From an uncultured Oscillospiraceae bacterium (lineage in GTDB: Bacteria > Bacillota > Clostridia > Oscillospirales > Oscillospiraceae), in contig CALWYF010000001.1 in NCBI GenBank assembly GCA_944385705.1, positions 3,118-67,117 on the forward strand: a stretch of DNA of 64,000 bases, in the 5' to 3' direction. Shown here piece by piece: positions 15,703 to 41,371 of the stretch; the stretch's first letter is position 1; each line of letters starts with the position of its first letter. The position numbers were made by a program, and so were the translations under genes. Under the pieces are notes generated by a model. It worked only from the letters and a program-made list of their open reading frames with translations. It had not been told where the DNA came from and searched no databases.

Positions 15703-15719
15703 GTGTCCAATTTGGACAC
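15703..15719. repeat. 17-bp palindrome copy 1 (GTGTCCAATTTGGACAC)
   Basis: Perfect 8+1+8 palindrome. Intergenic, 1 nt from the stop codon of the 168-aa gene. Confidence 0.9.
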
Positions 15720-15720
15720 G

Positions 15721-16227
15721 TCAATCTATGTTCCGATTAACCCCATAAAAAACTCTTCCGCTGTGAAGCACTTTCCTGTAAAAACAACCTATAGCAAAAA
15801 ATTTATCCGTGTGAATGCAGGTCTTAGCGTTGCTGCACTCCATATACCGGCTGCAACATGAGAATTCTTTGGGAAGTCTATCCAGTATGTACTGACAAGA
15901 AAGCCTAATATTATCCAAATACTCTGGTATTTCCTTCACGGAATTAATGTATACTTTGACAAAATCCTTGAAACCATCCGCTCCTATCTCATCAATATTG
16001 GGGAATTCAAGGAATGTCACCTTTTTTCCACAGTATATCCGCACAATTATATTTCCGGAAAAGCTAACAGAATATATTTCTGCAGAACTTTTACTTGTCA
16101 ATTTTTCAAACTTGGCAGTCATCCCGGAAAGCCCGTTTTCAGATAGTAGATCAGCTATGGAATTAAGAACGGTTGTTTTTACTTTTTCTATTGGTGTGGG
16201 TTCGAAAAAAGAAGTTTGTTCGTTCAT
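15721..16227 (-). CDS. hypothetical protein with Cys-rich C-terminus (distal gene of the cassette)
   Basis: 168 aa; C-terminal EFSCCSRYMECSNAKTCIHTDKFFAIGCFYRK; 4-bp overlap with the upstream gene; AT-rich. Confidence 0.6.
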   Translation of the reverse strand: MNEQTSFFEPTPIEKVKTTVLNSIADLLSENGLSGMTAKFEKLTSKSSAEIYSVSFSGNIIVRIYCGKKVTFLEFPNIDEIGADGFKDFVKVYINSVKEIPEYLDNIRLSCQYILDRLPKEFSCCSRYMECSNAKTCIHTDKFFAIGCFYRKVLHSGRVFYGVNRNID

Positions 16228-17453
16228 ACTGATACCTCACAATTTATAAGCTGGAGAAACTGATCTTCATTTAAAAAAATGATATTAGCTTTACCTGATT
16301 TATTCAAATCATAAGCTTTTTCTTCCTTTGTGCTCATGCCATCCTCTCCGACCAATGCCTTGTCCTGTTTCCCAACAACAAGATAATCCGTCTTTTTTGA
16401 AACAGAGGACTTAACAATGGCTCCAGAATTTACTGCAATCTGCATTGCCTCAGCCCTGTCCATATTCAGCTCCCCGGTGAAAACTATATTTTTGCCAAAC
16501 AATGGATTGCCCTCATCAAAAGCGGTAACTGTTGGGCTGATATCCTTGGGATTTACATTATTAAAGTGGGATACAACTGCTGGAACTTTACGGCTGCTGC
16601 CTCTCTTCCTGTAGGAGGCCTCATTACTTAGCTCATTGTTCTCACTGTCATCATCGGAAGTGTTTTTGATAAGCTGGTCTTCCATAAGCTTTGATGTGCA
16701 CTTCAGATATAAAGCTGCACAGGTATATACATCGGCCAAAGCCCTATGCGATGGCTGTTCAGGCAATTCAAGCCAAACCTTCAAGTTCTCCAGCTTGTGA
16801 TTTTCAAATTCAGGAAAAGCCTTCCGGGACAACTTCAAAGTATCAATGACCGAATAATCAAAGTTATATCCGTATGTATAGAAAGCATCACAGAGAAACG
16901 ATTTATCGAATGGAGCATTATGTGCTACTATCGGCAGTTTCTCAATAAAGGAAATAAATTCGGGCAGCACTTCTTTTATCTCGGGCGCCGTAGCCACGGC
17001 CTCATTATTTATCCCGGTAAGAGCTGTTACTTCCTCAGGTATATGCTTCCTGGGGTTGACCAAGGTTTCAAAAGTGCCTATCTCATTTCCATGGACATAC
17101 TTTACGGCAGCGATTTCTATTATGCTGTCTTTGTTGTGGTTTCGTCCGGTTGTTTCCAGATCTAGAACAACATATGATTCAGCCAATGCACTGGAAGAAA
17201 AACCAGACTGCATATCGGCCAGATAGTCGGTGTTAATACAATGCAGTTCATCACCAAGCTGGATAACGGATATGAAATCCTTTATATAGCCCTTTAATGT
17301 GCAGATTACAGGTGCATTAGTGAAACCACCAGAATACATTAAAGACTTTGCAAATTTTGAGCTAGGCGCAGCGAGGTTGTGTTCTACCATAAACCGCAAC
17401 TTTTCTGAATCATTTGAAAATGCTGTCCAATTATCTTTCGGAGGAATCATCAT
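16224..17453 (-). CDS. DEDDh (DnaQ/epsilon-like) 3'-5' exonuclease fused to a C-terminal BRCT domain, with an unassigned ~95-aa N-terminal domain
   Basis: ExoI VVLDLETTG, ExoII VAHNAPFDKSFL, ExoIII HRALADVYT. C-terminus FGKNIVFTGELNMDRAEAMQIAVNSGAIVKSSVSKKTDYLVVG is BRCT-like. Confidence 0.8.
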   Translation of the reverse strand: MMIPPKDNWTAFSNDSEKLRFMVEHNLAAPSSKFAKSLMYSGGFTNAPVICTLKGYIKDFISVIQLGDELHCINTDYLADMQSGFSSSALAESYVVLDLETTGRNHNKDSIIEIAAVKYVHGNEIGTFETLVNPRKHIPEEVTALTGINNEAVATAPEIKEVLPEFISFIEKLPIVAHNAPFDKSFLCDAFYTYGYNFDYSVIDTLKLSRKAFPEFENHKLENLKVWLELPEQPSHRALADVYTCAALYLKCTSKLMEDQLIKNTSDDDSENNELSNEASYRKRGSSRKVPAVVSHFNNVNPKDISPTVTAFDEGNPLFGKNIVFTGELNMDRAEAMQIAVNSGAIVKSSVSKKTDYLVVGKQDKALVGEDGMSTKEEKAYDLNKSGKANIIFLNEDQFLQLINCEVSV

Positions 17454-17558
17454 TTCACCCCACGCAAAAGTTTGAATAAATTGTACACATTGATAACGCA
17501 GCCATCTGGTGCTTAAATTAAGCCTTGCAATAAATTTCTTCTTGCATCATGCCACCGT

Positions 17559-17575
17559 GTGCCCAAATTGGGCAC
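17559..17575. repeat. 17-bp palindrome copy 2 (variant GTGCCCAAATTGGGCAC)
   Basis: Perfect palindrome with a C/G variant in both half-sites; lies between the cI stop (17577) and the cassette start. Confidence 0.8.
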
Positions 17576-17576
17576 A

Positions 17577-18521
17577 TTATTTTTTTATTTTTCTCCGGAG
17601 CTCGACCACGACTCCGGCAATTGACACAGGTAAAGACTCTATTTCCTCCGGGCTGAACGTCCTGGGAGGATACGATTGGTTGCGGGGTACGATGGTTAGG
17701 CTGTGATCACTATTAAGACGCACCTGCTTGAGTGTTGCCTCATATCCATTTACATACACAACACAGTCATCGCCGGAATTACAGGTAGGCTGCTTACGGA
17801 CAATTACTGTATCACCTGGCAGATAGTCCGGCCACATACTGTCTCCTTTGACCTGGAGGGCAAAGTATTCCCTTCCGCCATCAACCATACTGTCTGGGAT
17901 GTCTTCCCAGTCAACTATGTCTTCGACTGCTTCTAATGGAATGCCCGCAGGAACAGTGCCGAGTACAGGTATAGAAATTGCTTGACTTTTCTTTGGATTT
18001 GCATACTCATAAGTTGAAAACTCGTATAGCTTATTGTTTATTGCATCGCCTAATCCCATAACTTTTGAATTGTGCAATTTAACTGCTGAATCAAAAATGG
18101 GAGTAAATTCTACTTCAGCAGTTGATTGATCAACAATTACAACGGATTTCACCGCATTTGCAAACCATTGGATTAAGAATAATTCGTTTTTTTCATAAAA
18201 AAATGCAATATCAAGGTTGGCTATAAGAAATTTATCATCTTTAATTGGGTCACTGTAATCTGGAGGTATTTTTTTTCGTATTGCGCAGAAAACTGCCTCA
18301 GCATTCGACATTATCTCTTCCCAGTTTTCAAAGACGCCTGCACCGACCAAGAAATCAACTGGCACATGAAGAACTTTTGATAGCCTAACAAGCGTATCAT
18401 TATCCGGGCAAGATGGGGATGTTTCCCACATGGCAACAGTTGTCCTTGCTACATTTAATGCCTTTGCCAATTGCGCTTGTGTTAATTTGTTGAGTTTTCT
18501 AGCCGCTTTAATTGGATTCAT
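17577..18521 (-). CDS. cI/LexA-like prophage repressor (XRE HTH + inserted domain + S24 peptidase)
   Basis: N-terminal LTQAQLAKALNVARTTVAMWE HTH. C-terminal GDSMWPDY (Ser) and EATLKQV (Lys) S24 autocleavage motifs. About 110 aa of unassigned sequence lie between them. Confidence 0.85.
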   Translation of the reverse strand: MNPIKAARKLNKLTQAQLAKALNVARTTVAMWETSPSCPDNDTLVRLSKVLHVPVDFLVGAGVFENWEEIMSNAEAVFCAIRKKIPPDYSDPIKDDKFLIANLDIAFFYEKNELFLIQWFANAVKSVVIVDQSTAEVEFTPIFDSAVKLHNSKVMGLGDAINNKLYEFSTYEYANPKKSQAISIPVLGTVPAGIPLEAVEDIVDWEDIPDSMVDGGREYFALQVKGDSMWPDYLPGDTVIVRKQPTCNSGDDCVVYVNGYEATLKQVRLNSDHSLTIVPRNQSYPPRTFSPEEIESLPVSIAGVVVELRRKIKK

Positions 18522-18538
18522 AAAAACACCTCAATGTA

Positions 18539-18567
18539 ATTCTATGTCAAAAATAACGACATTGCAA
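18539..18567 (-). promoter_or_regulatory. repressor-maintenance-type promoter for cI
   Basis: Minus strand reads TTGCAA, 17 nt, TAGAAT, followed by GAGGTG RBS and ATG 18521. Confidence 0.6.
18546..18560. promoter_or_regulatory. operator-like site O1 (GTCAAAAATAACGAC)
   Basis: Shares GTCAAAA...GAC with O2 and O3; lies in the spacer of the cI promoter. Confidence 0.55.
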
Positions 18568-18588
18568 GAAGACTAAACGAAAAAGTCT

Positions 18589-18603
18589 GTCAAAACTATT
18601 GAC
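18589..18603. promoter_or_regulatory. operator-like site O2 (GTCAAAACTATTGAC)
   Basis: 15-bp imperfect palindrome overlapping the -35 of the rightward promoter. Confidence 0.6.
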
Positions 18604-18627
18604 AAAAACCCCGCTAGAATATATAAT
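18599..18627 (+). promoter_or_regulatory. early rightward (PR-like) promoter
   Basis: TTGACA (18599-604), 17 nt, TATAAT (18622-27). Confidence 0.7.
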
Positions 18628-18637
18628 TATATCAAAC

Positions 18638-18652
18638 GTCAAAAGTTTTGAC
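18638..18652. promoter_or_regulatory. operator-like site O3 (GTCAAAAGTTTTGAC)
   Basis: Perfect 7+1+7 palindrome just downstream of the PR -10. Confidence 0.65.
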
Positions 18653-18706
18653 ATAAATACAAAAATTTAGGCTGCTGCAAATTACCATATAGGGGAGGTG
18701 AAAGAA

Positions 18707-18916
18707 ATGGTGATGAGAATTCGTGAGTTGCGCCAATCGTTAGGGATGAAGCAGCAAGAGCTTGCTGACGTGATGGGAGTATCACGTACTACTGCAACCC
18801 AGTGGGAAAGTGAGGTAGCTCTACCTCGTACCCGACAGCTCCCGGATCTGGCCAGAGCTCTGAATTGCTCCATCGATGAACTTTTTGCTCAGCCGGAGCC
18901 GGTCTGTCCCATGTAA
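18707..18916 (+). CDS. Cro-like XRE-family HTH regulator
   Basis: MVMRIRELRQSLGMKQQELADVMGVSRTTATQWE; ATG 18707 after AGGGGAGG; divergent from cI. Confidence 0.8.
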   Translation: MVMRIRELRQSLGMKQQELADVMGVSRTTATQWESEVALPRTRQLPDLARALNCSIDELFAQPEPVCPM

Positions 18917-18946
18917 GCATTATATCCCAGAGAGGAGGGAATAGCC

Positions 18947-19402
18947 ATGCAGGACAACTGCGGGAATATCTATAAAAGAGCAAGAGCCACTGCCGGTCTG
19001 ACCCAGGAGCGCTGGTCGGAGCAGCTGGGCGTAAGCGTGGAGAGCGTGCGACTCTACGAGACGGGAGCCGGTATGCCCTCCGATGAGGTAGTGACCCGGA
19101 TGATAGAGGTGGCGGTACTGCCGGTGCTGGGATATTGGCACTTGATGGCCAAATCAAGAGTGGCGGCAGAGATTCTGCCGGAAGTTAAGACGGTACCACT
19201 GGCCCAGGCCGTGGTGCAGCTGCTGCACCGCATCCGGGAATTTGATGAGCAGCACCGTGTCCGGGAGCTGCTGAGTATCGCAGAGGATGGTCAAATAGAT
19301 TCGGCCGAGCGAGAAGTTTTTGGCAGCATAGTCAAGGAGCTGGATGGTATAGTCCAGGCTGCAATGGCTTTGAAGTTTTCGGAGGGACAAGATGGACGAT
19401 AG
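18947..19402 (+). CDS. XRE-family HTH protein with C-terminal helical domain
   Basis: IYKRARATAGLTQERWSEQLGVSVESVRLYETG HTH; good RBS. Confidence 0.7.
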   Translation: MQDNCGNIYKRARATAGLTQERWSEQLGVSVESVRLYETGAGMPSDEVVTRMIEVAVLPVLGYWHLMAKSRVAAEILPEVKTVPLAQAVVQLLHRIREFDEQHRVRELLSIAEDGQIDSAEREVFGSIVKELDGIVQAAMALKFSEGQDGR

Positions 19403-19655
19403 AATGCTGACGCCTGAGGAAGTGTGCGAGTATTTGAGCGTGTCTCAAAGTACATTGAATCGCATAGTGCTGGACGGCGATCTCCCCATGTATAAGGTGC
19501 GGGGCAGCTGCCGATATTTTGCCAGCGATGTCCAGACTTATATCGCCGGGTGCAGAAAGGCCACCGTGGCCCCGGGCATAAAAATACCCCGGACCAAGAG
19601 CATAAGCACCAGGCCCAGGGAGTGCAAATATATACCGGGGATGAAGGTGGTCTAA
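19392..19655 (+). CDS. excisionase-family (MerR-like) HTH DNA-binding protein
   Basis: MLTPEEVCEYLSVSQSTLNRIVLDGDLPMYKVRGSCRYF matches the excisionase-type HTH pattern. Confidence 0.65.
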   Translation: MDDRMLTPEEVCEYLSVSQSTLNRIVLDGDLPMYKVRGSCRYFASDVQTYIAGCRKATVAPGIKIPRTKSISTRPRECKYIPGMKVV

Positions 19656-19774
19656 ATGATAAGAGCAAATAAAAAGCCCCTGCAGATGCGGGTACATCTG
19701 CAAGGGCCAGTCATGGGTGACCATGACATGAGAACACTTGTATTATATCAGATCCCCGGCGGAAAAACAAGGGG

Positions 19775-20560
19775 GTGATAACAATAGACGGCATTACTGA
19801 GTTTACCGGCCAGTGGGCCATCCTACCGGCCAGAGTGAGATATGACAAGCAGCTTCCGGCCAATGCCAAGCTGATATATGCGGAGATCGCCGCAAAAATC
19901 AATGAGGAGGGCTTCTGCTTCTGCCACAATGCCTACTTTTCAGAGCGTCTGGGCATCAAGCGGGATACGGTGAGCACTCTCATCAAGCGGCTAGAAAATG
20001 CTGAGTATATCCGTATCGATGTGGACGTGTCCAGAGTCAATTGCGACCGGCGTAGGATATATCTCACGTCAAAACCCTACGAGTGGGGGGTATCGGATTT
20101 AAATAGGGTACCCCCTATAAAGGGGGGTACCCCAGAAAAATCCGGTACCGGAAATAAATCCGAGAGGGTACCGGATTTAAATCCGATACCAATAGAAAAT
20201 AATAATTTAAAATATAATACCCCCTATAATCCCCCAGAGACTCCACCGACTCCAGCGGAGGAGCAGGGCCCCAAATGGAAACCGGAACGCTTTGAAAAAT
20301 TCTGGGCGTACTATCCGTGCCATAAGAGCAAGAAGGCTGCTGTGAAAGCCTGGGACAAGCTCAAACCGTCAGACGAGCTACTGGCCATAATCGCCAGAGC
20401 CCTGACGAGGCAGATGGCCACGGAGGAATGGCAGCGGGGGATCGGTATCCCCTATGCCAGTACATACCTCAACAACGAGCGCTGGACGGATGAAATTGGG
20501 CCTGCAAGCCCAATGCCAGAGAGCCCACCTCCCGGAGGTGACGTGCCCACATGGACTTGA
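19775..20560 (+). CDS. phage replication initiator (N-terminal wHTH), carries internal ori-like repeats
   Basis: NAKLIYAEIAAKINEEGFCFCHNAYFSERLGIKRDTVSTLIKRLENAEYIRI is wHTH-like. GTG start after AAGGGGG. Immediately precedes the DnaB helicase. Confidence 0.65.
   Translation: MITIDGITEFTGQWAILPARVRYDKQLPANAKLIYAEIAAKINEEGFCFCHNAYFSERLGIKRDTVSTLIKRLENAEYIRIDVDVSRVNCDRRRIYLTSKPYEWGVSDLNRVPPIKGGTPEKSGTGNKSERVPDLNPIPIENNNLKYNTPYNPPETPPTPAEEQGPKWKPERFEKFWAYYPCHKSKKAAVKAWDKLKPSDELLAIIARALTRQMATEEWQRGIGIPYASTYLNNERWTDEIGPASPMPESPPPGGDVPTWT
20085..20230. repeat. ori-like iteron cluster plus AT-rich tract inside the initiator gene
   Basis: GGTACC cores at 20107, 20126, 20144 and 20167. GGTATCGGATTTAAAT (20089-104) is inverted at 20175-190. 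ACCCCCTATAA occurs at 20110 and 20219. AT-rich stretch at 20191-20218. Confidence 0.6.
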
Positions 20561-21930
20561 TACACTACTACGACGCCCAGGTGGCTGTGCTTGGCAGCCT
20601 TCTCATTGAGCCGGACAAGCTCAGCGGGGAAATAATGCACCGGGTTCGGCCGGAGGACTTCGGTGACGCCCCGCTGCGGAATATCTTCCGGGCGGCCAAA
20701 GAGTTATATTTGGCCAATGCCCCTTTGGATGCTGTGACCGTGGTAGAGAGGGCAGGCAAGGGCTATGAGCCACTGGTGCGCCAGATCCTGGAGGCCACCC
20801 CTACCGCTCAAAACTGGGAGGCCTATGTGGCCATACTTAAGGACGGCGCTCAGATGGCTGCTCTCCGCCGCCTTGGAGAGCAGCTGCAGGATGCAAAAGA
20901 CATGGAGCAGTGCCGCAAGCTGCTGGCCTCAGCTGAAGGTATGCTTACTGCACGGCCTGGGCGGAAAGCCTCTACATACCAGGAGCTTATCTCTGATTAC
21001 TTGGACCGTCAGAGCGACAAGTCGCCTCCGGATTATCTGGACTGGGGCATCGAGCAGCTCAATCGGAATATCTCAGTATCTCCAGGCCGCTTTGTAATTC
21101 TGGGCGCAGACAGCTCAGTGGGCAAGACCGCTCTGGCGCTGCAGCTGGCCTATAACATCGCAGCCAAAGGCAAACGAGTAGGTTTTTACAGCTATGAGAC
21201 ATCCCGGGCCGATGCGGCAGACCGTATCCTGGCGAATGCGGCCAGCATCAACTTGCCCAGGACAAAGCATAAGGCACTGTCAAAAGAGGATTATATCAGC
21301 GCCACTGTCGAGGGGGAACGCTCAGTAAATATCAGACTCTCCCTGGTGGAGACTGCCGGATGTACGGTAGAAGAGCTCCGGACGGAGACTTTGGCCGGGC
21401 GATATGATGTGGTTTTTATCGACTATGTGCAGCTGATCCCCGCCAAGGCTTCAGACCGCTGGCAGGTAGTGACCGAGGTATCCATGGCGATGCACACCAT
21501 GGCCCAGCAGCTGGGCGTCACAGTCATTGCCTTGTCCCAGGTTACGCCGCCAGAGCTGGACAAGAAAGGCAAGCGGCGGCCACTTAGAAAAGGTGATCTC
21601 CGAGAGAGCCGACAGCTGATAAATGACGCCGACCTCATCCTGATGATGGACTTAGTAGATCCTGACGATAGCCAGAGCCTCAGAGTGCTGAGAATCGACA
21701 AAAATAAGGACGGCCCCCTGGGGAAAATCTACCTGCGCTTTGATGCGGAGCACATGCGCTTTACTCCGGCTCCGGCCCCGCCCAGCGAGGCCTACCAGAA
21801 AGTGATGGATGCAGCAGCCAAAGTCAAAAAAGAGCAAAGAGAAGAGGCCAGAAAGAAGAAAGGCCAGCCCATAGACGGACAGGCTAAGTTTGAGGAGCTG
21901 CCGGACAATGGTGAGCCCCTGCCATTTTAG
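20551..21930 (+). CDS. dnaB: DnaB-type replicative DNA helicase
   Basis: 459 aa; DnaB N-domain (AQVAVLGSLLIEPDKL), Walker A GADSSVGKTALAL, Walker B VVFIDYVQL. Confidence 0.9.
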   Translation: MDLIHYYDAQVAVLGSLLIEPDKLSGEIMHRVRPEDFGDAPLRNIFRAAKELYLANAPLDAVTVVERAGKGYEPLVRQILEATPTAQNWEAYVAILKDGAQMAALRRLGEQLQDAKDMEQCRKLLASAEGMLTARPGRKASTYQELISDYLDRQSDKSPPDYLDWGIEQLNRNISVSPGRFVILGADSSVGKTALALQLAYNIAAKGKRVGFYSYETSRADAADRILANAASINLPRTKHKALSKEDYISATVEGERSVNIRLSLVETAGCTVEELRTETLAGRYDVVFIDYVQLIPAKASDRWQVVTEVSMAMHTMAQQLGVTVIALSQVTPPELDKKGKRRPLRKGDLRESRQLINDADLILMMDLVDPDDSQSLRVLRIDKNKDGPLGKIYLRFDAEHMRFTPAPAPPSEAYQKVMDAAAKVKKEQREEARKKKGQPIDGQAKFEELPDNGEPLPF

Positions 21931-21938
21931 GAGGATGC

Positions 21939-22238
21939 ATGCGAATAGGCGAGTTTTACACCTTTGTCCCGGCAGGATTTACCGGGGAGAAGCACGGCAC
22001 CGTCAAGCAGGCACAGGCTCTCCCTCACAAGGTGACCGGCACCATCGTGGGGATCAACCGGGTACACCGATTTTGTCGGGTGCGCTTTAATGTGAACGGC
22101 GTTACATTGCACGAATGTTTCAAAATAAAGAGTCTGGAGGACCGATATGAGAACAACTGTAATTTTGAATTTAAAGGGCGGCGTTGCAAAGACCGCCACG
22201 GCCGTCAATGTGGCGGCGATCCTGGCCAGCGACTATAA
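21939..22238 (+). CDS. hypothetical protein (3' end overlaps parA by 92 nt)
   Basis: ATG after AGGAGGA. The last ~30 aa are an Arg/Gly-rich out-of-frame read of parA, so the true C-terminus is uncertain. Confidence 0.45.
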   Translation: MRIGEFYTFVPAGFTGEKHGTVKQAQALPHKVTGTIVGINRVHRFCRVRFNVNGVTLHECFKIKSLEDRYENNCNFEFKGRRCKDRHGRQCGGDPGQRL

Positions 22239-22917
22239 GCAGCGGGTACTGCTGATAGATGCTGATAGCCAGTGCAATACTACAGAATTTTACGGTGGAG
22301 ATCCTGCCAAGGGTAATTTGGCTGAGCTGCTGCGGAGCGGCAGCCAAGAGGACGCAGCGTGGGGCATTCAGAGCACCAGATTCACCGGTGTGGATCTTCT
22401 GGCCGGGGACGAGAGCCTTATGGACCTTGACCTCACTAAAGTGGAGCTGCAGGACGTGCGGGCCACGGTACTTAGGGACATGGTGCAGTCGCTGGATAAG
22501 ATGAGCCTTTACGATTGGGTGTTGGTGGATTGCCCACCAGCATTCAATGCGGCCTCGGCGGCCGCTCTCATTGCCGCCGATGAGGTAATCATCCCAATCA
22601 AGCTGGACGCCTTTTCCCTGCGGGGAATGGCCAATTTGATGCGGCAGATTGCCAACATGAGACAAATAAATCCCAAGCTGAGGCTGGGAGGGCTCCTGCC
22701 CACGATGTGGTACAGAAGCGAAAATATACAAAGGGCAGAAGAGACCCTGCGGGCCTCCGGCCTGCCGGTATACCCGCATATCCGCCGCACCAATAAAGTT
22801 GATGACATGACCTTTGACCAGCAGCCGCTGCTGGTCTCCAGCCCCAAGAGCGCCGCCGGTAGGGACTACCGCACATTTGTCCGTGCGCTCATGGAGGGAG
22901 GCGCAGTCAATGGCTAA
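22147..22917 (+). CDS. parA: ParA/Soj-family partition ATPase
   Basis: Deviant Walker A LNLKGGVAKTATAVN, then LLIDADSQCN and VLVDCPP. Confidence 0.9.
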   Translation: MRTTVILNLKGGVAKTATAVNVAAILASDYKQRVLLIDADSQCNTTEFYGGDPAKGNLAELLRSGSQEDAAWGIQSTRFTGVDLLAGDESLMDLDLTKVELQDVRATVLRDMVQSLDKMSLYDWVLVDCPPAFNAASAAALIAADEVIIPIKLDAFSLRGMANLMRQIANMRQINPKLRLGGLLPTMWYRSENIQRAEETLRASGLPVYPHIRRTNKVDDMTFDQQPLLVSSPKSAAGRDYRTFVRALMEGGAVNG

Positions 22918-24430
22918 GACCGGCTTTGACCTCGCCTCCATTCTGGGGGATGTGTCCAAATTGGACACCGGCCTGCAGCCCGATGGACGGGAGCAGATCG
23001 AGTACATAGACCTCAGTCTCATAGACCCAGACCCCAACAATTTTTACGAGATGACCGATATTGAGGAGCTGGCTGCCAATATTGAGCTGCTGGGCCTGCA
23101 GCAGCCCTTGAGGGTCCGGCCCAATTCAGACAAGCCGGGGAGATTGATTATTGTCTCCGGGCATCGCCGCAGGGCAGCTCTGGAACTGCTTGTGGGCGAA
23201 GGTAAGTCGCAGTTTGCCCAGGCACCGTGCATCAGGGAGGCAGGCGATCAGTCCGCTGCCCTCCAGGAGCTCCGGCTTATATACGCCAACAGCGACACCA
23301 GGAAGCTCACTTCGCCCGAACTGTCTAAGCAGGCGGAGCGTGTGGAGGCTCTTCTTTACCAGCTCAAGGAGGAAGGCATGGACTTCCCCGGCCGGATGAG
23401 GGATCATGTGGCTGAGGCCTGCAAGGTGAGCAAGTCCAAGCTGGCCCGGCTGAAAGTCATCCGTGAGAAGCTGGACAAGCCATTTTACCAGCTGTATGAG
23501 AAGGGCACAATTGCCGAGAGCGTGGCCTATGCTCTTGCCCAGCAGCCTTTGGAGATACAGAGGGCAGTGCACGATTACAAGTGCGTTGGTAAAAACGGTG
23601 CTAAGTACCTGCGGGAATGGGAGGTAGACAATGTAGCTGAGAACTATAAGAAGATTACTGAGCGAACGTGCAAATTTGGTGGTGCTTGCAGCCATGGTGC
23701 GGCATTGCTCGGGAAAATATATGACGGCTCGTATAGCTATAAGCCGTGTGAGCATGTCAAGTGCTGCAGTAAGTGTGATAAGCTGGCAAGCTGTAAATCC
23801 GCTTGTCCAAAGCTGAAGGATAAAATCCAGAAACTCAAGGCGGATAAAAAGGCGGCGGCCCAGCAGGAGAAGCTGGCCAAGGAAGAAAAAGAGCGTCCTG
23901 ATATTGAGCAGATCACCAGACTCTGGGCTCGCTTTGGCGAGGCCAGAGCGGCAGCGGGGAAGAGTGTGAGGCAGATAATAGAAGCTGCTGATATGTACTA
24001 CACTAAATCTGATGATGAAAAGTATAAAGCTCTTGAAAGTGGTGGCAGACAAGTCACGACATCTACAGGGCTGCCTTATAGCTATGGCTTTAGTTTGACC
24101 GATGTCCGGAGGCTCATATCTATTGCGGACTGCCTCGGCTGTAGTCTGGACTATCTCTTCTGCCGCACCGATGAGCCAAGAGCCAAGTGGGAGGAGCACG
24201 ATGCTTCAGTTCCTGTCACGGCTACGGCATGGCATACTGGTACTCCGCCCATGAGCGGCGAGTACATTGTGAAGCTTGCATTACAAGATGAGCAGGATGA
24301 ATTTATTAAGGCTTTCCTCGACTTTGATCGTTACAATAGTGAGTGGAGCTACGAGTATGGTGAGCCGTTAGACACATCTTTGGCTAAAGTGATAGGCTGG
24401 ATACAGCTCCCCGAGGAGGATGAAGAATGA
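22910..24430 (+). CDS. parB: ParB N-terminal-domain protein with long Cys-rich / HTH-like / DUF551-like C-terminal extension
   Basis: Start ATG 22910 overlaps the parA stop. LQQPLRVRPNSDKPGRLIIVSGHRRRAAL is the ParB box. Then CKFGGACSHG...CEHVKCCSKCDKLASCKSACPK, and C-terminal IGWIQLPEEDEE. Confidence 0.8.
   Translation: MAKTGFDLASILGDVSKLDTGLQPDGREQIEYIDLSLIDPDPNNFYEMTDIEELAANIELLGLQQPLRVRPNSDKPGRLIIVSGHRRRAALELLVGEGKSQFAQAPCIREAGDQSAALQELRLIYANSDTRKLTSPELSKQAERVEALLYQLKEEGMDFPGRMRDHVAEACKVSKSKLARLKVIREKLDKPFYQLYEKGTIAESVAYALAQQPLEIQRAVHDYKCVGKNGAKYLREWEVDNVAENYKKITERTCKFGGACSHGAALLGKIYDGSYSYKPCEHVKCCSKCDKLASCKSACPKLKDKIQKLKADKKAAAQQEKLAKEEKERPDIEQITRLWARFGEARAAAGKSVRQIIEAADMYYTKSDDEKYKALESGGRQVTTSTGLPYSYGFSLTDVRRLISIADCLGCSLDYLFCRTDEPRAKWEEHDASVPVTATAWHTGTPPMSGEYIVKLALQDEQDEFIKAFLDFDRYNSEWSYEYGEPLDTSLAKVIGWIQLPEEDEE
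22952..22968. repeat. 17-bp palindrome copy 3 (GTGTCCAAATTGGACAC)
   Basis: Perfect copy 43 nt into parB (encodes VSKLDT). Confidence 0.9.
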
Positions 24431-24621
24431 GAGGCACGAAGAAGGCCAGGTATGCGGAGTATACCGGCAAAAAAATGTGGCTTGTGGAGCACCCTCAATT
24501 CGGCAAATGCCGGGCGTGTGCGCCCAGCTCGGAGGCGGCTGTAGTGGCCGCCGCCGAGGCATGGGGGACTAAATGGACGAGACTGGATTTCTACACCGTA
24601 TGCACGGTGTGCCCAGCCTGA
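24427..24621 (+). CDS. hypothetical small protein
   Basis: 64 aa; ATG overlaps the parB stop, preceded by GAGGAGGA. Confidence 0.5.
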   Translation: MRGTKKARYAEYTGKKMWLVEHPQFGKCRACAPSSEAAVVAAAEAWGTKWTRLDFYTVCTVCPA

Positions 24622-24630
24622 GGAGGGAAT

Positions 24631-24840
24631 ATGCCAGGGACACGATACGTCATAAATTTAAGAGCTAAGCGGGAGCCGGACGGGCTGGCTCCCGCCATCA
24701 GATGCAGCCGGTTCTGGTGCCAGCGCATGGGAGACAATCGATGCTGCGCTGTGTGCTCCAGGCTGGAGCAGTGCATTGATCCCTGCCTCAATAGCCCGGC
24801 CCGCTGCGGCCTGGTGTCCAAATTGGACACCGAAGAATAG
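24631..24840 (+). CDS. hypothetical Cys-rich small protein
   Basis: 69 aa, 8 Cys; RBS GAGGAGGG. Confidence 0.5.
   Translation: MPGTRYVINLRAKREPDGLAPAIRCSRFWCQRMGDNRCCAVCSRLEQCIDPCLNSPARCGLVSKLDTEE
24814..24830. repeat. 17-bp palindrome copy 4 (GTGTCCAAATTGGACAC)
   Basis: Perfect copy at the 3' end of ORF 24631..24840 (again encodes VSKLDT). Confidence 0.9.
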
Positions 24841-24984
24841 GGTATTAAGCTTCGCAAGAAGCGCAGCTGCTGGATTTTATCCAGCGTTCGAAGGGGCTTG
24901 GGGAGCTGCCCCAACAAGCGTTTTTGCAATGTGGCTATCCACTTGCATTGCTTTGCAATGTTAGACAATCTATAATGGGGCATC

Positions 24985-25969: not shown

Positions 25970-26022
25970 TTTAATCCAAAGACGAAGGCCAGCTGGGCTA
26001 CGGTCGATTTCAGGAGGAGACC

Positions 26023-26775: not shown

Positions 26776-26806
26776 GCTTTTTATAAATTTTTCTGACTCG
26801 AAAGAT

Positions 26807-27043: not shown

Positions 27044-27119
27044 CATGATGCAGATATGCATTGTGACGTCGGCTCCGGCTCTTTTTGCCGTCTGCCCGAC
27101 TCCATGGAGGTGATAGCCC

Positions 27120-29099: not shown

Positions 29100-29106
29100 G
29101 AAGTGC

Positions 29107-29457: not shown

Positions 29458-31246
29458 AGCTCCGCACTTTGACCAAGTCTTAGATTACGCTCGTGCCACG
29501 GCTGCCGATGAGAGTCTGTGTGAGCTTACTCGCCTCAGCTGCAGCCGCTTTTTAGATGACCTGGAGAGCGGCCGCTGGGACTTTAACCCGGCTCTTCCAG
29601 AATTCTGCATCGAGATGATGGAGGGCCTTTTCTGCTACTCCAGCGGTGAGCTGCTGGACGGTACTCCCCTGAGAGGGAAGCCTCTGAAGCTTATGCCCTG
29701 GCACCTGTTCTGCACTTACGCCATATGCGGGTTTATGCTGCCGGGCACTCAGATGCGCCGCTTCACGGAGGCCGGTATATTCTGCCCCCGAAAAACCGTA
29801 AAAACAACATGGGCGGAGGGCTTGCAGACGGCACTGGCCCTCTGGTACAGGCGCTCCGGTGTCAAGGCCAAGACCGTGGCCGGAAGCCTTAAGCAGGGCC
29901 TTGAGGGCTTCGACTGGCTGGTATACAACTTCAGTCTTCTGGGCTTGGTGGATGCCAATAACAGCCCCGGCAAAATGAAGCTGCTGAACAGCAGCTTGGG
30001 ACACTCCATCGAGGGCGAGATCTGGGGCGGATTTATCGACCTAGAAACTTTGGCATTTAAGCCGGATCTCTTCGACGCCTTTAATGCACAGCTTGTCCAC
30101 CTGGACGAGCTGGAGCTGTATAAGGATGCCCGACCTTACACCAGGCTGCGTGATGCTACCAAGGCATATACAAACAAGCTGATTCTCTGCACATTCACGG
30201 CCGGGGACGACGGTACCGGCTTCGGAGCCGCCCACCACGATTACATGGAGAAGATCCTCCGAGGGACCATTACCGGCCCGGACGCTGACCGGATGTTTTG
30301 CTATATGGCTGAAGCTCCAAAACAGCCGGACGGTGAAGTGGATTATTTGAATCCCAGCATCCACCGTGCGGCGAATCCGGCCTATGGCATTACTATCCGG
30401 CCGGACGATATGTTGGCGGCGGCTATGCAGGCCAAGAACAACCCGATAACACGCAAGGAGTTTTTAACAAGGTCGCTCAATGTTTTTGTGAGCTCTTTCA
30501 AAGCCTGGTTTGACCTGGATGAGATCCGCCGCTCTGATGAGCGGTACAACTGGAACCAGTCGGAGCTGGCCAAGCTTGTGAAATACTGGTACGGCGGCGC
30601 AGACTTGTCCAGGCTGCACGATTTGACCGCCGCCTGCTTAGTGGGAGAGATCCCGGCCCAGCTTGCAATGTGTCCAAATTGGACACCGCCTGAGGATGTG
30701 CTGGTGATCCTGCCGCACTGCTGGTTTCCCATTGTGGCAGCAGCTCAAAAGGCTGATGAGGACCAGATACCCCTTTTTGGCTGGCGGGATGACGGATGGC
30801 TGGATATGCCAAACGAGCCGTCCATGGATCCTACGGAGCCGGTGAAGCAATTCAAAAAGTGGAAAGCTGAGGGATTTAATATTCGCAAGGTGGGGCATGA
30901 CCGAAAATTTGCCACCAGGTACTACACGGCCATGAAAAGAGCGGGCTTTGCAGTTGTGGACCAGCCGCAGCTGTATATGCAGAAGAGCGGCGGCCTGCGA
31001 TACATAGAGCACAAGGCGAAAATTGGCTGCCTGTATTACTGCCACGCAGAGCCATTTGAATACTGCATATCCAATGTGCGTGGGCAGGAAAAGGCGGACG
31101 ATGCCGTCCAATATGAAAAAATATCGCCGACCCTGCGAATCGACGTTTTTGACGCCGCTGTCTTTGGCGTCGTTAGGATGCTGTTGGACTCTGAGAGCGT
31201 CAGTAATCAGCAGCGGTGGTTTGGCACCGGAAATGAGGAGAAGTGA
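29450..31246 (+). CDS. terminase large subunit
   Basis: Start ATG 29450 overlaps the TerS stop. 598 aa, HK97-type TerL-like layout, followed by portal. Confidence 0.85.
   Translation: MSRAPHFDQVLDYARATAADESLCELTRLSCSRFLDDLESGRWDFNPALPEFCIEMMEGLFCYSSGELLDGTPLRGKPLKLMPWHLFCTYAICGFMLPGTQMRRFTEAGIFCPRKTVKTTWAEGLQTALALWYRRSGVKAKTVAGSLKQGLEGFDWLVYNFSLLGLVDANNSPGKMKLLNSSLGHSIEGEIWGGFIDLETLAFKPDLFDAFNAQLVHLDELELYKDARPYTRLRDATKAYTNKLILCTFTAGDDGTGFGAAHHDYMEKILRGTITGPDADRMFCYMAEAPKQPDGEVDYLNPSIHRAANPAYGITIRPDDMLAAAMQAKNNPITRKEFLTRSLNVFVSSFKAWFDLDEIRRSDERYNWNQSELAKLVKYWYGGADLSRLHDLTAACLVGEIPAQLAMCPNWTPPEDVLVILPHCWFPIVAAAQKADEDQIPLFGWRDDGWLDMPNEPSMDPTEPVKQFKKWKAEGFNIRKVGHDRKFATRYYTAMKRAGFAVVDQPQLYMQKSGGLRYIEHKAKIGCLYYCHAEPFEYCISNVRGQEKADDAVQYEKISPTLRIDVFDAAVFGVVRMLLDSESVSNQQRWFGTGNEEK
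30670..30686. repeat. 17-bp palindrome copy 5 (GTGTCCAAATTGGACAC)
   Basis: Perfect copy inside TerL, in a different reading frame (encodes CPNWTP). Confidence 0.9.
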
Positions 31247-37588: not shown

Positions 37589-39338
37589 TATCGCTACCAG
37601 AAAGCTGGACACTAAGCTGTCCGTAAGCGGTGAACAGCAGTATAAGAACGCCATAACAGAAATAAACCGGGGCATAGGCGTGCTCAAGGCGGAAATGCAG
37701 AAGGTGACCGCTGAATTTGAGGATAACGCCGACAGCGTGGAGGGACTTACCGCCCAGACCGATGTCCTCAACCGCCGCCTGGAAAGCGAGAGAGACAAAG
37801 TCTCGGCTCTAAGGGATGCTCTCAGCTATGCTGTCCGGACCCACGGTGAGGCCAGCAAGGAGGCCATGGACTACCAGGCTGCTCTGTACAAGGCGGAAGC
37901 CCAGGTAAGCAAAACAGAGAGCGCCATACGCCGGAATACGGAAGCATTGACTCAGCAAGATGAGGCTCTGGAGGATGCTGCGGAAGAAATGACCGGGGCG
38001 GGAGATGTGGCAGAGAAGCTGGCCGGAAAATTTGGAATCACGCTACCGGACAATCTTAAAAAGGCTCTGGGCAGTACCAAGACCTTTTCCAGCGGCACCG
38101 TAGCTGCCATGGGGGCTGCAGCTGCTGCTGTAGGGACGCTTGTCGCCGCTGAGAAACAGCTCATGGATATCACCAGAGAAGCGGCCGAAAGGGCAAAAGA
38201 GACTGAAAATCAGTCTCTTATCAGCGGCATGAGCACCGAAGAGATCCAGCAGCTGGAATATGCCAGCAAAATTATTGGTGTGGCCACTGATAAAATTAGC
38301 GACGCCCAGAAGACTATCATCACTAATATGCAGTCGGCCAAGGATGGCAGTGAGGATTATATAAATGCTTTTGCTCGCCTTGGCGTACAAATTACCGACA
38401 CCAGCGGGCAGCTCCGGGACAGTAATGAGGTCTTTTACGAGGTGCTGGACGCCCTCGGGGAAATCGAAAACCGCACAGAGAGGGACGCCGCAGCAATGTC
38501 CCTGATGGGCGAGTCTGCGAGAGAGCTCAATCCCATTATTGCCCAGGGCAGCAGCGTGCTCCAGCAGTATGCCAAAGACGCTCAGGACACCAGCTATGTC
38601 CTGAGTACTGATCAGGTGGAAGCTCTGGCGGCAGTAGACGAGAAATACCAGGAGCTGCAGCTCCGTCAGGAGGCTGTGCGAAAACAGCTGGCATCGGAAT
38701 TTGCTCCCACCGCCGAGAAGGTATATGACAAATTTGGAGAGTTGGTTACTGAGGCAGGAGAAGCGCTTATTGATAGCGGCCTTGTGCATAACCTAGGGAG
38801 CCTGCTTGAATCTGCGGTATCTCTCGCTGAACCGATTCTAAATCTTGCAAATATAGTCCTGCCTGTGCTTGGTGCTGTTCTGGAACCTATTGCAGGATGG
38901 GTGGCCATTATAGCTGATGCTGGGGACTGGCTGACAGGATTGTTTAGCGGGAACTTTAGCCAAATGGGCGTGGCTTTGGGCGCAGGGGTGTCTGAAGGTA
39001 AATTCAGCAATTACCAACAATATTTGGGCTACAGCCAGAATATGGATGGTAGCTATTATAACCCTGAAACTGGCCTTTGGGAGGGCAATGCCTTCCACGC
39101 CAGCGGCACGGACTACTTCCGTGGCGGCCGGACCGTAGTGGGTGAAAACGGTCCTGAGACCGTCATACTCCCGGCCGGGAGTCGCATCCTCACCAACCAG
39201 GAGACCCGAGAGAGCGCTGGCGGAGGCGTCTATATCGATAAAGTCGTAATCGATGCCAAAAACGTCAGAGACTTTAACGCCGCTGTGAATACATTCAGCA
39301 ATTTCCGACGTATCTACCGGATGGGAGCAAAGGCATGA
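37494..39338 (+). CDS. tail tape measure protein (start unresolved)
   Basis: 614 aa, coiled-coil and Ala/Gly-rich TM-like segments. The only canonical in-frame start (ATG 37494) lacks an RBS. AAAGGAGG at 37574-81 is not followed by an in-frame ATG/GTG/TTG. Confidence 0.8.
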   Translation: MTAISDERKSRNRTIRRKNHGRWRPILKEAVDIATRKLDTKLSVSGEQQYKNAITEINRGIGVLKAEMQKVTAEFEDNADSVEGLTAQTDVLNRRLESERDKVSALRDALSYAVRTHGEASKEAMDYQAALYKAEAQVSKTESAIRRNTEALTQQDEALEDAAEEMTGAGDVAEKLAGKFGITLPDNLKKALGSTKTFSSGTVAAMGAAAAAVGTLVAAEKQLMDITREAAERAKETENQSLISGMSTEEIQQLEYASKIIGVATDKISDAQKTIITNMQSAKDGSEDYINAFARLGVQITDTSGQLRDSNEVFYEVLDALGEIENRTERDAAAMSLMGESARELNPIIAQGSSVLQQYAKDAQDTSYVLSTDQVEALAAVDEKYQELQLRQEAVRKQLASEFAPTAEKVYDKFGELVTEAGEALIDSGLVHNLGSLLESAVSLAEPILNLANIVLPVLGAVLEPIAGWVAIIADAGDWLTGLFSGNFSQMGVALGAGVSEGKFSNYQQYLGYSQNMDGSYYNPETGLWEGNAFHASGTDYFRGGRTVVGENGPETVILPAGSRILTNQETRESAGGGVYIDKVVIDAKNVRDFNAAVNTFSNFRRIYRMGAKA

Positions 39339-41371
39339 GTACAATACTTACACTTGATGCAAGTGAATCCGCTATAGTACGGGAGTCCGCTCCGGATTCA
39401 AATGACCACACATCACAAATCTATTCGGAGATAGACGATGAGAGCTCAGCCCTTTTCGTAAAATTCGATGTGCCGCCAGCATATTTGTATAATTTGATAA
39501 ACAAAGTGGAGTTCCGGGCCTATTTTACTCCGTATAGCTACTATGACGGTGGATCCGGTACAAATTTTATGGACGCCACAGTGTCATTTTACGCTGTCGG
39601 TGATGTTTGGGACTCAGAAACGGTAACATGGCTAACTAAACCGTTTCATTATGGCACAGGAAATGCTTCTCTGAAGATTTTGAATCCGACATCCGGACTT
39701 CCTGCTTACAGTGAGTGGGGAAATGTAGGGACTGCCTCCAGATTCTCAGATTGCTTGCGACATGGCATAAGAACCGCCGATGCCCCAAACAAAATTCATA
39801 CCGCATGTAGTGATCATCCGCCTCAGGTCAGGGTGGAGTTTCTTGATAGTAAAATTCGCCTTGAGCCTTCCAATATTTCTCCGGCATCAGGAGCGAGGAT
39901 TACTCGCACAAAGCCATTTACAGTCACTTTTAGCGGCACTATATGGGCACCTTCATTGCCCTACTACACGGCGAGCATACCAACTTTTTCTAGCTATCGG
40001 CTTTTTTATAAGCTGCAGAATGAAGAGGTGTATCAATCAATAGCCGTGACCGGGGCGAGTGGAGATGCTGGGACAGTCCAGGTACCAGCGAATACCCTGC
40101 CATCAGGCATGGTAGAGGCATACATAGAGGTCACTGACAGCGGAGGCACAACTACATCCAGCGACACTATAACCTGGGATACTACAGACACCATCTCGAT
40201 GGCTATCTGCGTGCGCCCTTCAGGGACTCTGGTAAATGGAGCCGAAACCACAGAATTTACCTGGCAGCATATCAATGAGAGCGGCACCCTGCCTACAAAG
40301 TCGGAGCTGCAATTTACTCAGAGCAAAGACAGCTGGGGCCAGACTGTGACCGTGACCGGCAGCGGCCTCACCTACGAGGCTCAGCCAGGGATCTTTACCT
40401 CCGGCACCTGGTACTGGCGGGTGAGGACGTATAATCAGGACGGTGTGGCGGGGAGCTGGAGTGAGACTGCTGAATTTGTGGTAGTGGCTCCGCCCACCAC
40501 CCCCACAGTGCTCATCCTCAATGCCTCGCCTCGCCCTGAAATCCAATGGCAGACCAATGAGCAGGAGGGCTATCAGGTGAAGCTGGAGGGCATCTACGAC
40601 CAGATCCTCTTCGGTCCGGGGAAAACCTGGAAATGTCCCCAGTACCTGGATGACGGTACATACACGGTGCGTGTGCGCTCACAGAATCGCTATGGCCTAT
40701 GGAGCCCCTGGGGCACGGCTACTATTGTCGTCAGCAATGAGCCCGGCTCGGAGATTGAGCTGAGTGTCCAATTTGGGCACATCGCAGAGCTGAGCTGGAC
40801 AAGCCAGGGATATGATTTTTATCTGGTGTACAGAGGCGAGAAGCCTATAGCTCGCTTGACCGGAGAAGAGTATATAGATGAATACTCCGGAGGCCAGACC
40901 GAGTATTTCATCCGGGGCTGCTATGCGGATAGCAGCAATTTCGGCAAATCCAATGACGTGAGCGGCACTGTATCTGCAGCTGTGACCATGATCAAGGCGG
41001 TACCTGATGGCCAATGGATAGAGCTGCCCTACAGCACGTCCATGTACTCAAGCATATCTACCACCAGACGGCGTGACGCCAGCAGAATGAGTCTCCAGGG
41101 CAGAGCATACCCGGTCACGGAGCTTGGGGAATTCTATGAGCGCAGCGTCAGCTTCAGCGCTGCATTTTTCCTTCAGGACGATCCTGGGCTGCAGGAGCTG
41201 CTGGGGCGCACGGTGTGCGTCAAAGCACCAGACCAGGACGTGCTTATGGCGACATTGGATGAGCTAAGATCTAATCGCAGCACTTTTTACATCAGCTACG
41301 ACTTTGCTTTGAGCCAGCAGTATTTTGAGGAGGAGATTGACATTGACACGGGCAGTATCTTATCGCCTTGA
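39335..41371 (+). CDS. tail protein: N-terminal DNRLRE-like domain, FN3-like repeats, C-terminal distal-tail (Dit)-like region
   Basis: 678 aa immediately after TMP; AVGDVWDSETVTWLTKP motif; repeated WYWRVRT / YTVRVRSQNRYGLWSPW FN3-like segments. Confidence 0.55.
   Translation: MSTILTLDASESAIVRESAPDSNDHTSQIYSEIDDESSALFVKFDVPPAYLYNLINKVEFRAYFTPYSYYDGGSGTNFMDATVSFYAVGDVWDSETVTWLTKPFHYGTGNASLKILNPTSGLPAYSEWGNVGTASRFSDCLRHGIRTADAPNKIHTACSDHPPQVRVEFLDSKIRLEPSNISPASGARITRTKPFTVTFSGTIWAPSLPYYTASIPTFSSYRLFYKLQNEEVYQSIAVTGASGDAGTVQVPANTLPSGMVEAYIEVTDSGGTTTSSDTITWDTTDTISMAICVRPSGTLVNGAETTEFTWQHINESGTLPTKSELQFTQSKDSWGQTVTVTGSGLTYEAQPGIFTSGTWYWRVRTYNQDGVAGSWSETAEFVVVAPPTTPTVLILNASPRPEIQWQTNEQEGYQVKLEGIYDQILFGPGKTWKCPQYLDDGTYTVRVRSQNRYGLWSPWGTATIVVSNEPGSEIELSVQFGHIAELSWTSQGYDFYLVYRGEKPIARLTGEEYIDEYSGGQTEYFIRGCYADSSNFGKSNDVSGTVSAAVTMIKAVPDGQWIELPYSTSMYSSISTTRRRDASRMSLQGRAYPVTELGEFYERSVSFSAAFFLQDDPGLQELLGRTVCVKAPDQDVLMATLDELRSNRSTFYISYDFALSQQYFEEEIDIDTGSILSP
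40764..40780. repeat. 17-bp palindrome copy 6 (GTGTCCAATTTGGGCAC, one half-site variant)
   Basis: Hybrid of the T-type and C-type half-sites, inside the tail gene. Confidence 0.75.

Follow-up and report, generated by a model that had tools for sequence, protein, structure and literature searches.

The 64,000-nucleotide stretch of uncultured Oscillospiraceae DNA analyzed here (hereafter the window), whose scaffold comes from a human-gut-type metagenome (ENA ERZ28615541), contains a 35.1-kb prophage in which a 17-bp palindrome, GTGYCCAAWTTGGRCAC, occurs six times. We consider these six palindromes to be, most probably, the cognate parS sites of the prophage's own ParA-ParB pair. The same motif accompanies ParB in about 80 related loci, one copy lies inside the parB gene itself, and the half-site of the palindrome changes together with the recognition helix of the ParB helix-turn-helix (HTH). 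The initial annotation of this DNA had suggested a dispersed parS or operator network and named the phage ParB, a ParB-domain methyltransferase, and an HTH regulator as possible binders; comparison of the related loci supports the first of the three.

Six palindromes within the prophage

The six copies are as follows.

15703..15719, parS-like site 1: GTGTCCAATTTGGACAC, intergenic
17559..17575, parS-like site 2: GTGCCCAAATTGGGCAC, intergenic
22952..22968, parS-like site 3: GTGTCCAAATTGGACAC, parB codons 15-20, peptide VSKLDT
24814..24830, parS-like site 4: GTGTCCAAATTGGACAC, 3′ end of small open reading frame (ORF) 24631-24840, peptide VSKLDT
30670..30686, parS-like site 5: GTGTCCAAATTGGACAC, within terL, peptide CPNWTP
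40764..40780, parS-like site 6: GTGTCCAATTTGGGCAC, within the tail-region gene 39335-41371, peptide SVQFGH

A scan of the window with GTGTCCAAATTGGACAC, allowing up to three mismatches, returned exactly these six places, with about 0.09 expected from shuffled sequences. The degenerate motif GTGYCCRANTYGGRCAC fits all six copies and is expected 1.5e-4 times by chance in the prophage. No seventh match at two or fewer mismatches is present in the 64 kb; further near-matches (three to four mismatches) occur only at 50683, 56239, and 56839, and none of them is palindromic. All six copies lie between the 46-bp direct repeats that bound the prophage and none is found in the 28.8 kb of host flank, so that the previous description of the motif as confined to the prophage holds within the window. 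The positions and sequences first given for the six copies were recovered by the scan, and their reading frames and the peptides VSKLDT (twice), CPNWTP, and SVQFGH are correct. Comparison of the flanks of the six copies revealed no common flanking sequence, which indicates that they are independent short sites and not fragments of a longer repeat.

Site 1 is located directly after a terminator-like hairpin downstream of a HicB-like gene, 2 nt from the stop of ORF 15721-16227 (− strand). Site 2 is situated between an exonuclease/BRCT gene (16224-17453, − strand) and the cI-like repressor gene (17577-18521, − strand), and is followed on the + strand by a T-run, giving it a terminator-like appearance. 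Site 3 begins at nt 43 of parB, as had been noted before, and falls within the predicted disordered N-terminal tail of the protein, while site 4 lies 384 nt past the parB stop. On the excised 35.1-kb circle the gaps between the six sites range from 1.9 to 10.1 kb. We also noticed that the HicB-like gene beside site 1, at 15254-15649 (+ strand) and inside the prophage, is of the antitoxin type.

The ParA and ParB proteins

The genes of the proposed partition pair, and the part of parB that encodes the HTH, are as follows.

22147..22917, + strand, parA: 256 aa, small Walker-type partition ATPase
22910..24430, + strand, parB: 506 aa
23384..23473, + strand, parB codons 159-188: FPGRMRDHVAEACKVSKSKLARLKVIREKL, HTH with putative recognition helix

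The elements of a ParABS system found here are a parA gene beside parB, a ParB N-terminal domain with the GxxRxxA pattern, an HTH, and palindromes in cis. The 3′ end of parA overlaps the start of parB by 8 nt. ParA has a deviant Walker A motif, LKGGVAKT, at residues 9-16 (pattern KGGxxK[ST]) and matches AAA_31 (E 1e-36), CbiA, and phrog_164, annotated as 'ParA-like partition protein'.

ParB is composed of a disordered tail (residues 1-27), an N-terminal domain of the ParB type (cytidine triphosphatase, CTPase) containing the motif GHRR (G84-R87), the HTH, a Cys-rich region (254-299), a long helix (300-348), a helical region (about 353-416), and a β-rich C-terminal domain (450-499). In the AlphaFold model (predicted local distance difference test score, pLDDT = 78), the N-terminal 220 to 250 residues, approximately, align with the structures of KorB, Noc, and chromosomal ParB. 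Foldseek gives these matches with a probability of 1.0 and a TM-score of up to 0.70 over alignments of 187 to 255 columns, which cover the N-terminal and DNA-binding domains of ParB, Noc, and KorB; KorB is the top structural match and Noc is also among the top ones. The best PHROG family of ParB has the annotation 'unknown function', and more than 4,800 homologues are found at E ≤ 1e-3.

The arginine patch G84-H-R-R-R-A-A90 is invariant in the family except for R88, which varies, and A89, which is kept in at least 90%. Its GHRR motif is encoded at 23159-23170, and the His aligns with the Glu of the GERR motif. The ENLQR-type motif, by eye, reads ANSDTR. The helices of the HTH span residues 163-171 and 175-187 in the model, and FPGRMRD...KLARLK is invariant or almost so in the family. 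Seven Cys residues (C254, C260, C285, C286, C289, C295, and C299, window 23669-23806) are likewise invariant, in a region without a family match that may be a metal-binding insert. The C-terminal 280 residues had no Pfam or PDB match, and are modeled as a long helix of about 50 residues and a small β domain. The helical region at about 353-416 is putatively an XRE-like HTH, a reading based on the secondary structure of the model, the conserved LGCSLDYL, and a borderline PDB hit (E 0.53), an Xre-family regulator. In one related locus, L349, parB is split into two called genes, 7024-7677 (217 aa, N-terminal domain and HTH) and 7825-8523 (232 aa, C-terminal module), which points either to separability of the two halves of ParB as modules or to a frameshift.

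The motif accompanies ParB in related loci

A megablast of window 15000-31500 against GenBank phages gave no match, and relatives were therefore sought through the ParB protein. A search of genome contigs with ParB as single query gave one 2.4-kb contig of a metagenome-assembled genome. The set of relatives used here consists of 80 IMG/VR loci with ParB relatives of 38% to 56% identity, which together with three GenBank phage records and the window make up 84 loci (L001-L083 plus the window; 1.34 Mb). The motif is carried at one mismatch or less by 76 of the 80 IMG/VR loci, mostly in two to eight copies dispersed over ±10 kb. Exact matches to GTGYCCRANTYGGRCAC number 223 in the 84 loci, including the six of the window, with about 0.008 expected in the 83 others. 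Flavonifractor phage Cormatin (ParB 46% identical) contains GTGTCCAACTTGGACAC three times plus GTGTCCGAATCGGACAC inside parB, and in two uncultured gut phages the motif takes variant forms, one copy in each phage being in the 5′ end of parB.

The placement of the copies is also recurrent. One copy is found at +40 to +70 nt of parB in 68 of the 84 loci, always in frame 0, and a second parB copy at about +1260 nt, again in frame 0, in 24 loci. The 4.5 kb upstream, holding rep, dnaB, and parA, contains no copy in any of the 84 loci, and the remaining copies are scattered over the lysogeny arm and the late genes. A ParA partner with intact Walker A accompanies ParB in 76 of the 84 loci. In L327, where TerL is 70% to 73% identical and ParAB is absent, no site is present in its 21.8 kb. 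In the converse direction, from motif to ParB, an exact scan of IMG/VR for GTGTCCAAWTTGGACAC returned at least 120 stretches; the retrieved loci are short, and only 24 of 119 include parB, with 30 more including another gene of the module.

Constraint on the DNA

The peptide encoded by the parB-internal site varies non-conservatively (VSKLDT, VPESGT, VPDSGT, VPNLGT, VSNSDT, and others) while the palindrome stays, so the proposal of the initial annotation that conservation acts at the DNA level stands. Both parB-internal positions fall in low-confidence parts of the model, residues 1-27 and the linker near 421-437, and these sites probably lie in disordered protein segments. From such comparisons we read the constraint on the site as one on DNA and not on protein. 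The motif can occupy any coding sequence because stop codons are impossible in it in all six frames.

Site 5 provides a second example. At its position the TerL homologues (L321-L347) mostly read A-A-T-x-[D/E]-W-T-P-P-E-D, while the window and four relatives read A-C-P-N-W-T-P (window 30658-30696), which supplies the missing half-site. Near-miss versions are seen in L334 (KCPDWAP) and L346 (ACQDWTP). Judged from these versions, three substitutions in a variable loop of TerL gave rise to the site.

Half-sites change with the recognition helix

The main-clade HTH, FPGRMRDHVAEACKVSKSKLARLKVIRE, is nearly invariant and pairs with any GTG[T/C]CC[A/G]A half-site; its KLARLK helix goes with GTGYCCRA. 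Half-site positions 4 (T/C) and 7 (A/G) look tolerated, not discriminated, because the same helices occur with either base there. Half-sites are more uniform within a genome (73% identity vs 40%), probably as a result of shared descent.

The four loci scored as lacking the motif hold variants of it. L075 has a 16-bp form, GTGCCCAKMTGGGCAC, in four copies (3155, 10032, 12378, and 15620), and L061 has an 18-bp perfect palindrome, GTGTCCGGATCCGGACAC, at 992, 4602, and 11332; these forms imply that the spacing of the half-sites differs by ±1 bp between ParB lineages. A third, L082, has GTGTCGGAWWCCGACAC inside parB and 9 kb upstream, and a helix KLAELK in place of KLARLK. Replacement of the Arg of KLARLK by Glu or Asp goes with the altered half-site GTGTCGGA. 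A scan of IMG/VR with GTGTCGGANNCCGACAC agrees with this, as Glu or Asp occupies the position in all 10 ParB-bearing loci that it retrieved (KLAELK, KVAELE, IGDLER, IGELER), among them ParBs of 25% to 31% identity and 318 to 334 aa that have only the N-terminal domain and HTH in common with the window ParB. The third class comprises plasmid ParBs (pCP13-like and pCS1; helix SPTQVGRY), which go with GTGYCCCCSGGGGRCAC. In the Clostridium perfringens pCP13-like plasmid L318 (NZ_CP148590.1, 24% G+C), GTGTCCCCSGGGGACAC occurs five times in 36 kb (1997, 9312, 9366, 13800, and 19858), once between parA and parB. Paeniclostridium sordellii pCS1-5 (L320) has three copies (89, 2504, and 16338), two of which flank parAB. 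Both are toxin plasmids of 24% to 26% G+C.

The half-site thus changes with the recognition helix in three classes, which is the co-variation with the ParB allele that had been put forward as a check. We name the canonical HTH of ParB as the likely reader of the palindrome because of this co-variation, which is uncorrected for phylogeny, and the linkage in cis.

The integrated prophage and its gene order

The prophage with this ParABS system is integrated into a tRNA-Lys gene, and its ends and integrase are as follows.

13616..13661, attL: left copy of the 46-bp direct repeat bounding the prophage
48757..48802, attR: right 46-bp copy, the 3′ end of tRNA-Lys(ttt) (48757-48832, − strand)
13670..14905, − strand, tyrosine integrase

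Host-type genes flank the repeats: the left side encodes an acetyltransferase, the right side a flavodoxin-like reductase and a GH3 glycosidase. At the right junction the − strand carries five clustered tRNA genes (Lys, Gln, His, Arg, and Gly; 48757-49293), the first of which, tRNA-Lys, serves as the phage attachment site. The leftward arm, mostly on the − strand, contains the integrase, the HicB-like gene, an ORF, the exonuclease/BRCT gene, and the cI-like repressor (HTH and S24). The rightward arm starts with cro-like HTH genes, Rep (HTH_36), DnaB, a small ORF, ParA, and ParB, followed by small ORFs, a G2P-like Rep, a fusion of ParB_N, methyltransferase, and Terminase_4, the small terminase TerS, TerL, portal, capsid, tail, and lysis genes. 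The parAB pair follows dnaB without a promoter-like gap, the sole intervening gene being the small ORF, which has its own ribosome-binding site.

Proposed mode of action and points against it

If the palindromes are parS sites, a ParB dimer would read two GTGYCCRA half-sites via its HTH (approximately residues 163-187). By analogy with canonical ParB, Noc, and KorB, ParB would bind cytidine triphosphate (CTP) through the N-terminal domain with GHRR, close as a clamp, and slide off the loading site. With six sites on a 35.1-kb circle and no gap above 10.1 kb, ParB could coat most of the genome, and ParA (KGGVAKT) would position or segregate the ParB-coated genomes. The site inside parB, just beyond the parA stop, may serve autoregulation of the operon by ParB. 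The genes parA and parB belong to a rightward early operon (cro, rep, dnaB, parA, and parB); from this place and the integration into tRNA-Lys it follows that the system should be expressed and act while the genome is an episome, be it in the interval from infection to integration, following induction, or as a plasmid-like carrier. Upkeep of the integrated prophage should not require it.

Several observations weigh against the identification of the palindromes as parS sites of this ParB. It is not evident what partition would do for a prophage integrated in the chromosome, and an integrase is also encoded by 22 of the 35 relatives for which 8 kb or more upstream of parB is available. ParB scores under the curated cut-offs of its families (Pfam ParB_N, 18.8 vs 26.3 bits; TIGR00180, 35.6 vs 58.45 bits). 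With His in place of the Glu of GERR, canonical CTP hydrolysis is not assured from the sequence; this Glu is E93 of Myxococcus xanthus ParB, and an E93A mutant is reportedly deficient in CTP hydrolysis. The sites outside parB are enriched at gene junctions, perhaps because they are more easily accommodated there, but the enrichment would also fit a role in transcription. Finally, L324 (IMGVR_UViG_3300006499_000147, a 15-kb contig), whose cI and TerL are 75% and 76% identical to those of the window, has four perfect sites (2415, 3953, 5125, and 11007) yet no parA, rep, dnaB, or N-terminal/HTH half of parB. L324 could be a recent deletion derivative or depend on ParB provided in trans, or the C-terminal module could read the site as well.

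A more ambitious proposal, which we put forward only tentatively and regard as possible but doubtful, is that a very large family of integrating temperate gut-Clostridia phages uses a ParABS system with an atypical ParB for its episomal phases and not to maintain the prophage, as a 'genome-coating' CTP switch distinct from plasmid partition. ParB would load at four to eight sites spaced for whole-genome cover by clamps, and the coating would position or compact replicating DNA, time transcription, or hold a plasmid-like carrier state before integration. The traits of ParB that belong to this proposal are GHRR, the Cys-rich region, the putative second HTH, and a loading site within the codons of its own disordered tail.

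Alternative explanations

The alternative that survives best, although we consider it unlikely, agrees with the parS interpretation on ParB as the binder and differs on what binding achieves. ParB would mainly be a global regulator or silencer resembling KorB or Noc, whose CTP clamps, loaded at the dispersed sites, block or silence transcription units, or organize or tether the phage DNA, with partition secondary or absent. It fits with the integration of the phage, which makes partition seem dispensable, with KorB and Noc being among the top structural matches, and with a dispersal of sites resembling that reported for the OB sites of KorB (RK2) and the Noc-binding sites (NBS) of Bacillus subtilis, and the His in place of the catalytic Glu could give long-lived clamps. 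With crude ORF calls, 50% of the non-parB sites are intergenic or within 30 nt of ORF ends, compared to 20% of background positions, a 2.5-fold enrichment. In the leftward lysogeny arm, sites occur at gene junctions in the window (15703 and 17559), in L205 (1381 and 2364), and in L324, where all three junctions among the four genes from ORF 2433-3041 to cI are occupied (2415, 3953, and 5125). On the other hand, half of the non-parB sites are within ORFs, and no site overlaps the cI-cro region or the strongest predicted promoters; a crude promoter scan for a KorB-type network found none at any strong promoter-like position, the predicted PR/PRM included. No KorA-like partner was recognized, ParA with its Walker A intact is conserved in most loci (the 76 of 84 above), and the plasmid relatives pCP13 and pCS1 have the system as an annotated par locus.

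That another phage protein binds the palindrome, be it the C-terminal module found in the ParB family (Cys-rich region, coiled coil, and putative second HTH), the G2P-like Rep, cI/Cro, or the ParB_N-methyltransferase, appears improbable. The C-terminal module comes into question through L324, where four perfect sites are found with this module alone (ORF 6067-6843, a stand-alone 258-aa homologue of ParB residues 284-506), and through the tentative XRE-like HTH at ParB residues 353-416, approximately, in the model. Short and plasmid ParBs without the module have the same class of palindrome, however, and among 1.84 billion representative proteins searched the module is nearly always fused or adjacent to the N-terminal part of ParB. 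A search of IMG/VR for stand-alone C-terminal proteins like that of L324 found only L324 itself. The stand-alone module was dropped as a reader, the short representative hits being split or truncated parB genes beside parA. The G2P-like Rep co-occurs in 71 of the 84 loci, but L034, L048, and L065 have sites without a detectable G2P homologue, and rolling-circle origins are single, not dispersed.

The binding of cI or Cro, proposed earlier as the HTH regulator, is disfavored. The cI-cro control region contains no copy of the 17-bp palindrome and has instead three copies of a distinct one, GTCAAAAnnnTTTGAC (18546-18562, 18589-18605, and 18638-18654), which overlap a perfect TTGACA-17-TATAAT promoter (σ70-type, 18599-18627). 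This triple operator presumably is the immunity switch, and cI/Cro was set aside on account of its different sequence. The ParB-domain methyltransferase, the other earlier candidate, was likewise set aside as it is present in only 19 of the 84 loci.

27585-29099, fusion of ParB_N, N6/N4 DNA methyltransferase, and Terminase_4 (small terminase) in a single ORF

This fusion ORF lies directly upstream of the separate TerS gene (29107-29457). ParB-like proteins without a DNA-binding domain have been described as partners of phage DNA-modifying enzymes (2025 preprint, 10.1101/2025.08.14.668559). A restriction site, a pac site, and a replication origin were also rejected as identities of the palindrome, since the sites are dispersed and none is in rep-dnaB-parA or at terS.

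An element without a dedicated binder, either a hairpin (terminator or RNA structure) or a mobile repeat of the repetitive extragenic palindromic (REP) or miniature inverted-repeat transposable element (MITE) type, is very improbable: site 17559 scores as a terminator-like hairpin with T-run, site 15703 abuts a terminator, and sites are enriched at gene ends, but four of the six window sites are inside ORFs without a T-run, the differing flanks argue against dispersal as a mobile element, copies with mixed half-sites show no RNA-pairing bias, both senses being represented (T..G 28, C..A 13; A..C 18, G..T 13), an Rfam scan found nothing, and the fixed position in parB and the HTH co-variation would stay unexplained.

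Comparison with known systems

The analogy drawn earlier with the dispersed centromeres of phage N15 is apt. N15, in the work of Ravin and Lane and of Grigoriev and Lobocka, is reported to have SopAB with four dispersed centromere palindromes of the sopC type, and its Sop system is said to affect late gene expression besides partition. The likeness lies in a temperate phage with a pair of the ParA/ParB type and one centromere palindrome scattered over the genome, some copies being in or near phage genes. N15 differs in being a non-integrating linear plasmid prophage of Escherichia coli with F-type (type Ia) SopA/SopB, whereas the window phage integrates into tRNA-Lys and has a small type Ib-like ParA, a ParB with an unrelated C-terminus, a site inside parB, and an unrelated site sequence. 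More generally, the window prophage differs from extrachromosomal phage-plasmids of the N15, P1, and RedRock type in having an integrase, attL/attR, and host genes on both sides.

KorB of RK2 (12 dispersed OB palindromes; PDB: 8qa8, 8qa9), the top structural match, also has the ParB-family CTPase-type N-terminal domain and HTH, a ParA-type partner (IncC), and a short palindrome with numerous copies distributed over the replicon, some of them distant from promoters. Unlike the window ParB, it is a plasmid global repressor acting with KorA, and its sequence and site are unrelated. In B. subtilis a parS site lies inside spo0J. Chromosomal ParB/Spo0J with parS (TGTTNCACGTGAAACA) and Noc with NBS of Firmicutes (PDB: 6t1f, 7nfu, 7ol9) share the fold of the N-terminal domain and HTH, and palindromic sites of 14 to 17 bp in several copies. 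The window system differs from them in its 17-bp site with an unpaired central base and other sequence, in scores below the family cut-offs, in GHRR instead of GERR, in the 280-residue extra C-terminal region, and in belonging to a phage replicon.

In cluster A mycobacteriophages the parS repeats are clustered beside parB. These phages (RedRock and others) are similar to the window phage in being temperate, with parA, parB, and parS stabilizing the prophage, whereas in the window family integrase and parABS coexist and the sites are dispersed. In cluster A the parABS locus takes the place of the integration cassette, and the prophage stays outside the chromosome (PMC7157519). The analogy with mycobacteriophage stoperators that had also been offered does not hold, as the operators of the repressor region, GTCAAAAnnnTTTGAC, differ from the dispersed palindrome.

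The closest plasmid systems are those of the pCP13 family (C. perfringens) and pCS1 (P. sordellii), in which the ParB N-terminal domain and HTH are 33% to 36% identical to those of the window ParB and a 17-bp palindrome with GTGYCC...GGRCAC arms is found beside parAB and elsewhere on the plasmid. They differ in the inner bases (CCCCSGGGG), the recognition helix, and the C-terminus, and they are true plasmids. The region published as putative parS of pCP13/pBCNF5603 is another one, 117 bp long and located downstream of parB (PMC4459074).

Implications

In the literature searched, six of the 17-mers were looked up and none is contained in any paper, no paper describes the parS of this phage/plasmid ParB clade, and the sole parS proposal for pCP13-type plasmids is the 117-bp region (PMC4459074). 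Dispersed centromeres (N15) and dispersed sites of ParB-family proteins (KorB and Noc) are already known, and the system described here differs from the known ones in five respects: the phage integrates, its ParA is type Ib-like, its ParB is atypical, one site is encoded in the tail of parB itself, and the family is large (more than 4,800 homologues).

A parS consensus, GTGYCC-RANTY-GGRCAC, and its variants are hereby defined for a clade of ParB proteins that has thousands of representatives among human-gut phages, although the function in partition is at present a probable one. The comparison further suggests that the toxin plasmids of the pCP13 family and pCS1 use the same class of site and not the region previously proposed. 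Naturally occurring HTH variants and the half-sites that match them form a series suited to studies of ParB specificity, and an experimental system is available in Flavonifractor phage Cormatin, carried by OMM12 strain YL31, which is cultivable. The coexistence of integrase and ParABS is the rule in this phage family, which contradicts the 'either integrate or partition' view based on mycobacteriophages and raises the question of what role a ParB clamp would have during infection or induction.

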